NCBI GenBank assembly: GCA_047975295.1
Contig: JBKEDH010000167.1
Span: 1-14,384, forward strand
DNA: 14,384 nucleotides
Reading direction: 5' to 3'
DNA from: Aestuariibaculum sp.
GTDB lineage: Bacteria; Bacteroidota; Bacteroidia; Flavobacteriales; Flavobacteriaceae
The translations under genes were made by a program, and so were the position numbers. The notes under the pieces are model-generated. The model was not told the origin of the DNA and did not search any database. It was given only the letters and a program-made list of their open reading frames with translations. Shown here one piece after another: positions 6,017 to 6,088 of this stretch (positions within the stretch are counted from its first letter, which is position 1; every line of letters starts with the position of its first letter).

Positions 6017-6088
6017 ATCTATCTGTCACGGGTTCGAATCCCGTTCCCAACAAAAGTTGGGATAGCTCAGTTTGGTAGAGCAATAGAT
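6017..6088 (+). ncRNA. Circularly permuted tRNA-like module (YrlA/Y-RNA-type tRNA mimic)
   Basis: Order on the + strand: ATCTAT (6017-6022), CTGTC, T-arm ACGGG-TTCGAAT-CCCGT (6028-6044), TCCCAAC (6045-6051), AAAA, GTTGGGA (6056-6062), TA, D-arm GCTC-AGTTTGGTA-GAGC (6065-6081), A, ATAGAT (6083-6088). The acceptor pairs 7/7 and is closed by a tetraloop. The anticodon-stem equivalent ATCTAT/ATAGAT pairs 6/6. The spacers (5-nt variable region, U8 A9, A26) match tRNA geometry exactly. Confidence 0.7.

Follow-up and report, generated by a model that had tools for sequence, protein, structure and literature searches.

What kind of RNA is encoded where the 3' half of a tRNA stands ahead of its 5' half and no anticodon loop joins the two? 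The question is raised by positions 6017-6088 (plus strand) of contig JBKEDH010000167.1 from the flavobacterium Aestuariibaculum sp. (GenBank assembly GCA_047975295.1), whose positions 1-14,384 were analyzed here as a whole and are referred to as the window. A preliminary description, made from the sequence, had taken the element for a circularly permuted tRNA mimic with the architecture of the bacterial Y RNA YrlA, lying beside the RNA ligase gene rtcB but without a gene for the Ro protein Rsr. We observe that the element, hereafter module 1, is one domain of a multidomain noncoding RNA of roughly 340 nt, which occupies approximately positions 5886-6224 of the plus strand and lies upstream of a gene for a slipin, a protein of the SPFH/Band-7 group. 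In Flavobacteriaceae, this RNA is placed almost without exception between tRNA genes and the gene of a soluble slipin, within RNA-repair islands.

Structure of module 1

Module 1 is a loop-closed, circularly permuted class I tRNA mimic without an anticodon loop. Read 5' to 3', it consists of the 3' strand of an anticodon-type stem, a variable region, a T-arm, an acceptor hairpin, a D-arm, and the 5' strand of the anticodon-type stem, with the following segments.

6017-6022, plus strand: 3' strand of the anticodon-type stem (ATCTAT)
6023-6027, plus strand: variable region (CTGTC)
6028-6044, plus strand: T-arm (ACGGG-TTCGAAT-CCCGT)
6045-6051, plus strand: 3' strand of the acceptor stem (TCCCAAC)
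6052-6055, plus strand: acceptor loop (AAAA)
6056-6062, plus strand: 5' strand of the acceptor stem (GTTGGGA)
6063-6064, plus strand: U8 and A9
6065-6081, plus strand: D-arm (GCTC-AGTTTGGTA-GAGC)
6082, plus strand: A26
6083-6088, plus strand: 5' strand of the anticodon-type stem (ATAGAT)

Inspection of the sequence returned every segment and its letters as first described, and two helices are perfect in the window, the acceptor (7 of 7 pairs) and the anticodon-type stem (6 of 6 pairs). The minimum free energy (MFE) fold of positions 5990-6130 contains every helix that had been proposed and, at −36.3 kcal/mol, is more stable than each of 200 shuffled sequences (−24.2 ± 3.3 kcal/mol; z = −3.63). 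The T-loop undecamer GGTTCGAATCC is present in three copies in the window, against 0.01 expected.

With Rfam gathering thresholds, just two matches were obtained in the window, both to the tRNA model, one over its full length at 5799-5870 and one partial at 6061-6115. The second was rejected as a tRNA: it is a composite of the D-arm of module 1 and the T-arm of the unit that follows, the strands that would form its acceptor stem, GTTGGGA and TCATGCA, are unable to pair, and it has no anticodon arm. ARAGORN called no tRNA in the window, including none at 5799-5870. With permissive thresholds, the Rfam YrlA model (RF02553) aligned to 6005-6107 with 47.1 bits (E = 4.3e-9), with a good fit of the T, acceptor-loop, and D core and with outer helices that were gapped or mismatched. 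The scan for a bacterial Y RNA therefore bears out the tRNA-like core, at a score under the gathering score of the family (69 bits). The YrlA-type architecture with a loop-closed acceptor stem is backed by the MFE fold, by the YrlA model, and by the covariation described below.

Conservation and covariation of module 1

The slipin encoded at 6513-7613 matches exactly a protein of an Aestuariibaculum sp. metagenome-assembled genome. An alignment of the slipin, homologues of which number in the hundreds in Flavobacteriaceae, was used to collect 80 loci, one per species, 78 of which extend upstream of the slipin gene. When the structure of module 1 is imposed on a MAFFT alignment of 24 species (A2), generated from sequence only and without structural information, 93.8% of the pair cells are paired, compared to 38-51% when the partners are slid by 1-3 columns, and compensatory double changes are found at 15 of the 21 pairs. 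Covariation extends to all six acceptor pairs, with strands such as TCCCAA/TTGGGA, TCTCAA/TTGAGA, CGTAAA/TTTATG, and TTCTGC/GCAGAA, and in the anticodon-type stem TCTAT/ATAGA alternates with TCTGT/ACAGA among species. The preliminary description had named noncompensatory changes in the acceptor and anticodon-type strands as a reason to abandon the structure; compensatory substitutions are found across species in all four helices.

Two properties of the window do not extend to the family. The sixth pair of the anticodon-type stem, 6017-6088, is formed in just 2 of the 24 sequences, so that the conserved stem has 5 bp, as in a tRNA anticodon stem. Similarly, the 7-bp acceptor is not constant, with 4 bp (n = 5), 5 bp (n = 14), 6 bp (n = 31), or 7 bp (n = 29) and loops of 3-23 nt, indicating that the shared trait is loop closure and not RNase P cleavage. 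This is in line with the same argument as made for YrlA (bioRxiv 10.1101/312249). U8, A14, G15, G18, G19, A21, G46, C48, T54, T55, C56, and A58 are invariant or nearly so in A2, and this set of tRNA tertiary-contact nucleotides fits a predicted L-shaped fold.

A covariance model built from A2 (R1) scores 51-92 bits at the equivalent position in approximately 75 species, and the module 1 type was found in 69 to 70 of 78 parsed sequences (the window and 77 loci). These scores have to be read against a trivial explanation, namely, that module 1 is nonfunctional debris, the junction of two decaying tandem tRNA genes, since Chen et al. warn of dimeric tRNAs as false positives of YrlA searches (PMC4201824). 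Junctions of genuine adjacent array tRNAs do match R1, with 19-46 bits, so that the score alone cannot separate the two classes, and the partial tRNA match at 6061-6115 points the same way. What does separate them is the covariation of the acceptor hairpin together with the missing flanking halves. The acceptor 3' strand of module 1 pairs with the 5' strand of the unit that follows, with compensatory change at all six positions, while the alternative tRNA reading leaves GTTGGGA/TCATGCA unpaired; there is no 5' half ahead of 6017 and no anticodon loop or 3' half past 6088, and the element is kept at one position in those approximately 75 species. The dimeric-tRNA reading is excluded on these grounds, and we consider its probability to be close to nil. 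We show, rather, that 6017-6088 encodes a genuine tRNA mimic, maintained by selection and able to adopt the L shape, the chain of which enters and leaves via a loopless anticodon-type stem of 5-6 bp.

A multidomain RNA with a second permuted module

The RNA begins 16 nt past a tRNA-Pro gene, lies approximately 300 nt upstream of the slipin gene, and is composed of a structured 5' domain of approximately 125 nt, module 1, a second module (module 2), and two hairpins (H1 and H2), with neighboring domains separated by 0-8 nt. Its features in the window, and its downstream partner, are as follows.

5893-6013, plus strand: 5' domain with four helices (P1 to P4), from conservation and covariation
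5893-5902 with 5972-5982, plus strand: helix P1 of the 5' domain
5911-5927, plus strand: hairpin P2 of the 5' domain, with a nearly invariant loop
5932-5968, plus strand: long hairpin P3 of the 5' domain
5990-6013, plus strand: hairpin P4 of the 5' domain
5987-5988 (GG) with 6001-6002 (CC), plus strand: candidate pseudoknot of the 5' domain
6091-6171, plus strand: module 2, a loop-closed permuted class II (Leu-like) tRNA mimic, by homology
6097-6113, plus strand: T-arm of module 2
6114-6118 with 6125-6129, plus strand: acceptor hairpin of module 2 (loop CAAAAA)
6132-6148, plus strand: D-arm of module 2, of the class II (Leu-like) type
6150-6166, plus strand: complete anticodon-type stem-loop of module 2 (5 bp, 7 nt)
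6091-6094 (TCAA) with 6168-6171 (TTGA), plus strand: putative closing variable-arm helix of module 2
6173-6189, plus strand: hairpin H1 (ATGGA-CTCAAAA-TCCAT), followed by a U-tract at 6190-6195, from MFE folds
6203-6224, plus strand: hairpin H2 (stem AACC/GGTT, loop A-CUUUUUAAAA-UA), with a conserved loop and a covarying stem
6513-7613, plus strand: slipin (SPFH/Band-7), 366 amino acids, soluble, the nearly invariant downstream partner of the RNA

A conserved noncoding block opens at the equivalent of position 5886, approximately 130 nt ahead of 6017, in all 78 loci with upstream sequence, with blastn identities of 72-83% over 5886-6042. On a MAFFT alignment of 77 sequences of the 5' domain (A4), RNAalifold predicts 34 pairs, 22 of them with compensatory change; an explicit pair count over the same sequences gives 97.1% paired, compared to 35-43% in slid controls, and compensatory changes in 24 of 36 pairs. 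One G·U pair of the 5' domain is kept in 77 of 77 sequences and would read as a C-A mismatch in the complementary strand, which places the RNA on the plus strand, and conserved G·U pairs assign all of its domains to that strand. A search of Rfam 15 with the 5' domain returned no match at E ≤ 10. Neither the RNA nor its 5' domain is in Rfam 15, and annotation pipelines therefore now overlook both. A likeness of P1 (CUGGU/ACUAG) to the Ro-binding helix of metazoan Y RNAs was considered and rejected, as it is present in some species only and covaries away.

Module 1 is followed, after 2-8 nt, by another junction of T-arm, loop-closed acceptor, and D-arm, that of module 2. In an alignment of 27 species (A5), its T, acceptor, D, and anticodon-arm helices are 100% paired, with compensatory changes in 12 of 18 pairs; the parser by which module 2 was delimited made no demand for pairing of the acceptor hairpin. 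The strand ahead of the T-arm pairs with the strand past the anticodon arm (a mean of 5.2 bp for a module's own flanks versus 3.7 bp for mismatched flanks; 0 of 5,000 permutations), as in GAAAC/GTTTC, AACGAT/ATCGTT, AAACAAT/ATTGTTT, and AATTGAA/TTCAATT, indicating that the chain enters and leaves module 2 through the long variable arm. We have met no description in the literature of this putative mode of permutation. Most loci carry two modules and some carry three.

Hairpin H1 can be read as a hairpin similar to an anticodon arm or as a weak intrinsic terminator. In many loci, a hairpin of this type, whose 7-nt loop varies, again follows the last module, and a terminator scan did not call H1, its stem being too poor in G-C pairs. 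The loop of H2 keeps the motif CUU(U/G)UAAAA in 67 loci while its stem varies, with 44 distinct stems that average 5.07 bp, versus 3.67 bp for permuted flanks (0 of 5,000 permutations). CCA occurs within the next few nucleotides of H2 in 43 of these 67 loci, where the window has ACAA. Past H2, most loci continue with (A)CCA and a further hairpin; its GUCAC loop is able to base-pair with UGAC(AAAAA) farther downstream (e.g., L009 at approximately 3640-3690, L023, L025, and L064; L numbers denote related loci), and covariation of GUCA/UGAC with GCCA/UGGC suggests an H-type pseudoknot. An A-rich stretch takes its place at 6226-6260 of the window, where the pseudoknot has apparently been lost.

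A full 7-nt anticodon loop on a Leu-like class II body, as found in module 2 of many species, invites a comparison with permuted tRNA genes in the style of Cyanidioschyzon merolae, in which case RNase P and RNase Z would cut at the acceptor loop and RtcB would join the outer ends into a functional tRNA. To our knowledge, bacteria have no bulge-helix-bulge (BHB) splicing endonuclease, which counts against this explanation. In C. merolae and other algae, permuted tRNA genes mature to functional tRNAs via BHB cleavage, ligation, and RNase P/Z (reviewed in PMC3978253), and module 1 shares with them the order of the two halves, 3' ahead of 5', and the short joint at the acceptor ends. In addition, an RNA ligase is encoded nearby, and RtcB is able to circularize such permuted RNAs (PMC10159003). 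Unlike the algal genes, however, the present RNA has no BHB motif and no conserved anticodon in module 2, the triplet of which differs among species and the loop of which in the window (ACUGGGU) lacks U33. Module 1 holds no nucleotides from which an anticodon loop could be restored, and its stem abuts conserved folded domains, so that it is not a permuted tRNA gene of this type. Since acceptors are often of 4-6 bp and most loci have no ligase in their flanks, maturation into a functional tRNA appears highly improbable.

Relation to YrlA and other tRNA-like RNAs

YrlA RNAs are bound by Rsr and modified by TruB and DusA. They are tRNA mimics with the topology of module 1 that attach to Rsr via a terminal helix and have been proposed as RtcB cofactors (Chen et al. 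2014, PMC4201824; Wang et al. 2018, bioRxiv 10.1101/312249). YrlA (RF02553) and module 1 have in common the T-arm, the loop-closed acceptor, the D-arm, and the anticodon-type closing stem, as well as conserved tRNA tertiary nucleotides, a variable acceptor length, an RNA-repair neighborhood with RtcB, and probably an origin from tRNA. In contrast to YrlA, the present RNA lacks the GNCGAAN0-1G motif and a terminal helix for binding Ro/Rsr, and no rsr gene is nearby; its module 1 has a new 5' domain of 125 nt on one side and a second permuted module on the other, and its constant neighbor is a slipin gene.

Is it nevertheless a bona fide YrlA, bound by an Rsr (Ro60) protein whose gene lies in another part of the genome? 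The best non-tRNA match in Rfam is YrlA, and the topology is that of the solved YrlA tRNA-like domain (bioRxiv 10.1101/312249). On the other hand, none of 16 related loci reaches the gathering score, which the window also misses, and the positions of the outer stem of the model remain unaligned. The GNCGAAN0-1G motif is missing from 5880-6260 and from 74 of 78 loci, with the four matches lying in D-loops, and where YrlA has a terminal Ro-binding helix, the anticodon-type stem of module 1 is flanked by other folded domains. The preliminary description was right in reporting no Rsr, as no TROVE domain was found among the nine large open reading frames (ORFs) of the window; neither was one found in ten neighboring ORFs sampled from other loci. 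We therefore regard membership in YrlA as very unlikely. The RNA has the YrlA fold without being a member of YrlA and is a Ro-less variant of the bacterial Y-like RNAs.

A second relative is the b7a-tRNA, which reportedly bears a strong resemblance to authentic tRNA. As cited in bioRxiv 10.1101/312249, Burroughs and Aravind (2016) predicted a Band-7-associated tRNA-like RNA next to RtcB and noted that YrlA occasionally adjoins a Band-7 protein. As far as that account goes, both are tRNA-like noncoding RNAs beside a Band-7/SPFH gene in an RNA-repair locus, for which a role as scaffold plus cognate RNA has been proposed, and the context agrees, with a slipin adjacent in 78 of 78 loci and in 82 of 86 metagenome loci (see below) and RtcB, PrfH, or Rnl2 nearby in subsets. 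In contrast to the b7a-tRNA, compared here by its description only, the present RNA is a chain of permuted, loop-closed modules with a 5' domain. The modules are not canonical cloverleaves; a near-canonical tRNA-Pro or tRNA-Tyr, the identity of which varies, precedes the RNA. Judging by the cited account, the present RNA was partly anticipated by Burroughs and Aravind (2016).

A third comparison is offered by an engineered tetraloop-closed, permuted tRNA that mimics nicked tRNA, which RtcB can ligate and to which RtcR binds (Costa et al. 2023, PMC10159003). Like module 1, it has a loop-closed acceptor end and its chain termini in the anticodon region. The engineered molecule is artificial and keeps the halves of the anticodon loop, with a 2',3'-cyclic phosphate and a 5'-OH, whereas module 1 has no loop nucleotides and its ends run into other RNA domains.

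Linkage to slipin

Across the 80 loci, slipin is the sole constant gene, with the 5' domain and the modules upstream of it in all 78 that have upstream sequence. In this respect the preliminary description has to be corrected, as the element is not immediately beside RtcB: the slipin gene at 6513-7613 stands between it and rtcB at 7763-9136, and slipin is the constant partner. To remove ascertainment bias, metagenome contigs were scanned with the 5'-domain signature, which gave 117 matches. Among the 86 RNA-anchored loci with at least 1.3 kb of downstream sequence, 82 carry a slipin gene on the same strand 551-837 nt downstream, with slipin identities down to 46%, and two T-loops are found in the expected interval in 88 of 105 loci. 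The four exceptions without slipin (L111, L164 at 3788, L170, and L186) constitute a single lineage. Viral contigs scanned with the same signature returned no match and thus no evidence of phage origin.

The slipin lacks a hydrophobic segment and thereby a membrane anchor. In an AlphaFold model based on a 57-sequence alignment (pLDDT 74.9; an AF2 model from 12 sequences, with pLDDT 50, was unusable), three tandem five-stranded beta units are followed by the SPFH domain and by C-terminal helices, a predicted fold that belongs to the ring- and cage-forming SPFH proteins. An SPFH gene has also been reported within the rtc locus of Pseudomonas aeruginosa (PMC13086221).

The fixed position of the RNA raises the possibility that it acts in cis, within a transcript of the tRNA array, slipin, and in some loci rtcB, as punctuation for RNase P/Z, as a stabilizer, or as a sensing leader for slipin. 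It always lies on the same strand, 551-837 nt upstream of slipin, and close relatives (L001-L012, L020, L026, and L029) conserve the 630-790 nt from the tRNA to the slipin ATG almost completely. Moreover, 29 of 79 module 1 acceptors have 7 bp, the length that makes the Mycobacterium smegmatis YrlA an RNase P substrate (PMC4201824), and many loci have the pseudoknot-like element and CCA past H2. Against this, most species have acceptors of 4-6 bp, which speaks against a strict requirement for RNase P cleavage; the RNA could terminate at approximately 6195, at H1 and its U-tract; and a cleavage site alone needs no elaborate conserved tertiary nucleotides. In addition, a block at 6383-6468, just upstream of slipin and conserved in close relatives, could serve as slipin's own promoter or leader. 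We consider a cis-acting element to be unlikely.

As to other features around the slipin gene, the block at 6383-6468 reads GTATTTCCGTAGTT.GAA.GATGGTT.TCTTT.GCTTTG and may be a promoter or leader, and the interval between the tRNA and slipin may hold further RNA elements. Flavo-1 RNA (RF01705) was found in four loci, approximately 30 nt past the slipin stop codon and on the opposite strand, with 51-54 bits, which is over its gathering score.

Neighboring tRNAs, ligases, and regulator

The gene order of the window is a WYL/WCX regulator, tRNA-Pro, the noncoding RNA, slipin, a divergent RtcB, and unrelated genes. The features in question are the following.

4588-5598, minus strand: divergently transcribed regulator with WYL and WCX domains (Pfam WYL and WCX; PADLOC WYL models)
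5799-5870, plus strand: array-type tRNA-Pro(UGG), last or only member of the upstream array (Rfam tRNA, 51.9 bits, full length)
7763-9136, plus strand: divergent RtcB-family RNA ligase, 457 amino acids (Pfam RtcB, 131 bits)
L002 5132-5208, L011 5132-5207, L020 5131-5214, and L043 5132-5204, minus strand: Flavo-1 RNA, in these loci and not in the window

ARAGORN calls tRNA-Pro at the orthologues of 5799-5870 in L001, L026, L008, L017, and L025, and in an alignment with its orthologues (A6) the window's gene shows 88% column identity and the same unusual D-arm. Across the loci, same-strand tRNA arrays of 0-18 genes lie upstream of the RNA, many loci carrying one (e.g., L013 809-2100, L017 666-2183, L025 2044-3159, L030 763-2042, and many others), and the window's clade retains a single array tRNA (Pro or Tyr). 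Array tRNA-Leu genes have 74-75 nt and are without the long variable arm expected of a bacterial tRNA-Leu; a Leu-like class II body persists in the permuted module instead of in an array tRNA-Leu. Long tRNA arrays are co-regulated with rtcB under translational stress in cyanobacteria, where replacement and sponge roles have been proposed (Santamaria-Gomez et al. 2021, PMC8421152). The two systems share same-strand tRNA arrays that adjoin RNA-repair genes, but no slipin and no permuted tRNA-like RNA are described in the cyanobacterial one, whereas here the array is optional and the RNA and slipin are constant.

This neighborhood bears on a role as a free-standing decoy, in which the RNA, without slipin, would sponge tRNA-targeting nucleases (anticodon nucleases, VapC-like toxins, or colicins) by presenting tRNA bodies that cannot be inactivated. 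Module 1 retains the tRNA elbow and the tertiary nucleotides without an anticodon loop, neither module has a free CCA end, and replacement tRNA arrays and ligases are found nearby. There are also precedents, as YrlA has been suggested to be a competitive inhibitor of anticodon nuclease (PMC7790460) and the array tRNAs co-regulated with rtcB have been proposed to be sponges (PMC8421152). However, anticodon nucleases usually read the anticodon loop, which is missing in module 1 and not conserved in module 2, and a decoy leaves both the near-obligate linkage to slipin and the strongly conserved, non-tRNA 5' domain unexplained. A decoy acting on its own therefore seems improbable to us.

The ligase of the window falls below the cutoffs of the NCBIfam RtcB models and matches RtcB chains in the PDB with E = 1e-16. 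It has an N-terminal extension of approximately 76 residues (residues 1-76) outside the RtcB family models, and a similar N terminus (M..K..I.GK.LI.LGY.QGK) is seen in a distant RtcB-like protein of L164. Only 15 of the 80 loci have an RtcB of the window's type downstream of slipin, and a ligase is missing from the flanks of most. Both the type and the position of the ligase vary, with RtcB downstream, RtcB and PrfH upstream, or Rnl2 with an RNase H-like gene upstream. Tenacibaculum loci carry genes for RtcB, PrfH (RF-1 domain), and a TPR protein upstream of the RNA-slipin core, and a Kordia locus carries an Rnl2-type ligase and an RNase H-like gene. Two alternative repair modules are thus seen upstream of the core, RtcB-PrfH-TPR and a T4 Rnl2-like ligase with an RNase H-like (PF04308) protein (L057 271-3156 and L072 855-2517).

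The WYL regulator is present in 9 of the 80 loci, and PADLOC matched only the WYL protein in the window, leaving slipin and RtcB unmatched. A palindrome, ACTACGCAAAAACATTGCGTAAT, located at 5658-5682 of the window and next to the WYL gene of L001, L003, L007, L010, and L012, adjoins the WYL start in every WYL-bearing locus. Behind it comes AATATTTGC, a sequence similar to a −7 box; L001 has another copy of the palindrome just upstream of the tRNA-Pro and the noncoding RNA. The palindrome probably serves both as the operator for the WYL protein and as the promoter of the tRNA-noncoding RNA unit; the terminator scan labeled it a minus-strand terminator. Between this putative promoter and tRNA-Pro, at 5743-5772, a perfect 10-bp, G+C-rich hairpin is found (GCTCCACCAG...CTGGTGGAGC), which is kept in L001 with a compensatory change (GCTTCACCAG...CTGGTGAAGC).

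A second noncoding region with a tRNA-Gly lies approximately 3 kb downstream of slipin in a Kordia locus (L078 7153-7934). It contains several copies of a repeat of approximately 180-250 nt (AAAGTTCATTGAAAA...GAATACTTCG) and, at 7857-7925, another loop-closed T-acceptor-D junction that scores 52 bits with R1.

A possible RNA subunit of a slipin particle

Starting from the structure, conservation, strand, multidomain organization, and slipin linkage established above, we propose, as a reading with an even chance of being correct, that it serves as the RNA subunit in an RNA-repair particle built on slipin and acts like a Ro-less Y RNA. The 5' domain would replace the Ro-binding stem as a platform on which a protein docks. 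The closed modules, having no free acceptor end, would present the elbow of a tRNA, its acceptor/T minihelix, and the shape of a tRNA nicked in its anticodon, with module 1 offering no anticodon loop that could be cut. In this way they may tether, or compete for, enzymes that recognize tRNA or nicked tRNA, such as RtcB or other ligases, RNase P, the CCA-adding enzyme, or anticodon nucleases. As to its origin, the RNA is probably descended from tandem tRNA genes in the neighboring array whose outer halves were lost. We favor a slipin particle because of the structure, the presence of several domains on one RNA, the linkage to a slipin of the SPFH group that has no membrane anchor, and the precedents of YrlA, of Band-7 proteins, and of the nicked-tRNA mimic.

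Several observations weigh against this proposal. Every functional step in it derives from structure and gene linkage, binding of the RNA by slipin is predicted, and in the model the N-terminal beta units of slipin look like duplicated SPFH N-terminal segments and not like a known RNA-binding fold. A cis-acting leader would be suited equally well by the fixed same-strand site upstream of slipin and by the conservation up to the slipin start in close relatives, and an Rsr protein could be encoded elsewhere in the genome. The number and type of modules and the "anticodon" of module 2 vary among species, and no single enzyme partner is therefore implied. In the window itself, the single-sequence MFE fold pairs 6089-6096 with the D-loop of module 2 and does not give the cloverleaf (z = −1.7), and the closing helix has only 4 bp, so that module 2 of the window rests on homology and not on thermodynamics. 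Finally, the lineage without slipin has a reduced 5' domain (the P2 hairpin and its flanks) and no tRNA-like modules, and this 5' domain lies approximately 160 nt downstream of a gene for a 477-amino-acid RtcB-like protein that is 29% identical to the RtcB of the window, which hints that the core of the 5' domain may relate to a ligase instead of, or besides, slipin.

A more far-reaching version, which we find doubtful but worth stating, is that a vault-like or Ro-like ribonucleoprotein (RNP) exists in Flavobacteriaceae and perhaps in other Bacteroidota. In it, a soluble, ring- or cage-forming slipin would bind the 5' domain, the chain of loop-closed mimics would capture damaged tRNAs or ligases as "nicked-tRNA" adaptors, and the RNA would have been exapted from tandem tRNA genes, a novel permutation through the variable arm included. 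If this is true, slipin RNPs would add a third class to the scaffold RNPs of RNA repair, next to vaults and Ro-Y RNA particles.

The locus shows that the Y-like tRNA-mimic fold, previously understood via Ro and Rsr, is kept across a bacterial family without the Ro-binding part, and that it is here fused to another conserved domain, duplicated in a new, putatively variable arm-permuted form, and tied to a soluble SPFH protein. The 2016 prediction of a Band-7 cognate tRNA-like RNA is thereby turned into a concrete, testable RNA with defined helices and many cultured hosts, and module 1 is a natural counterpart of the engineered nicked-tRNA mimic used for RtcB and RtcR. Together with the tRNA arrays and the interchangeable ligases, the RNA outlines a modular tRNA-damage response island in marine Bacteroidota.

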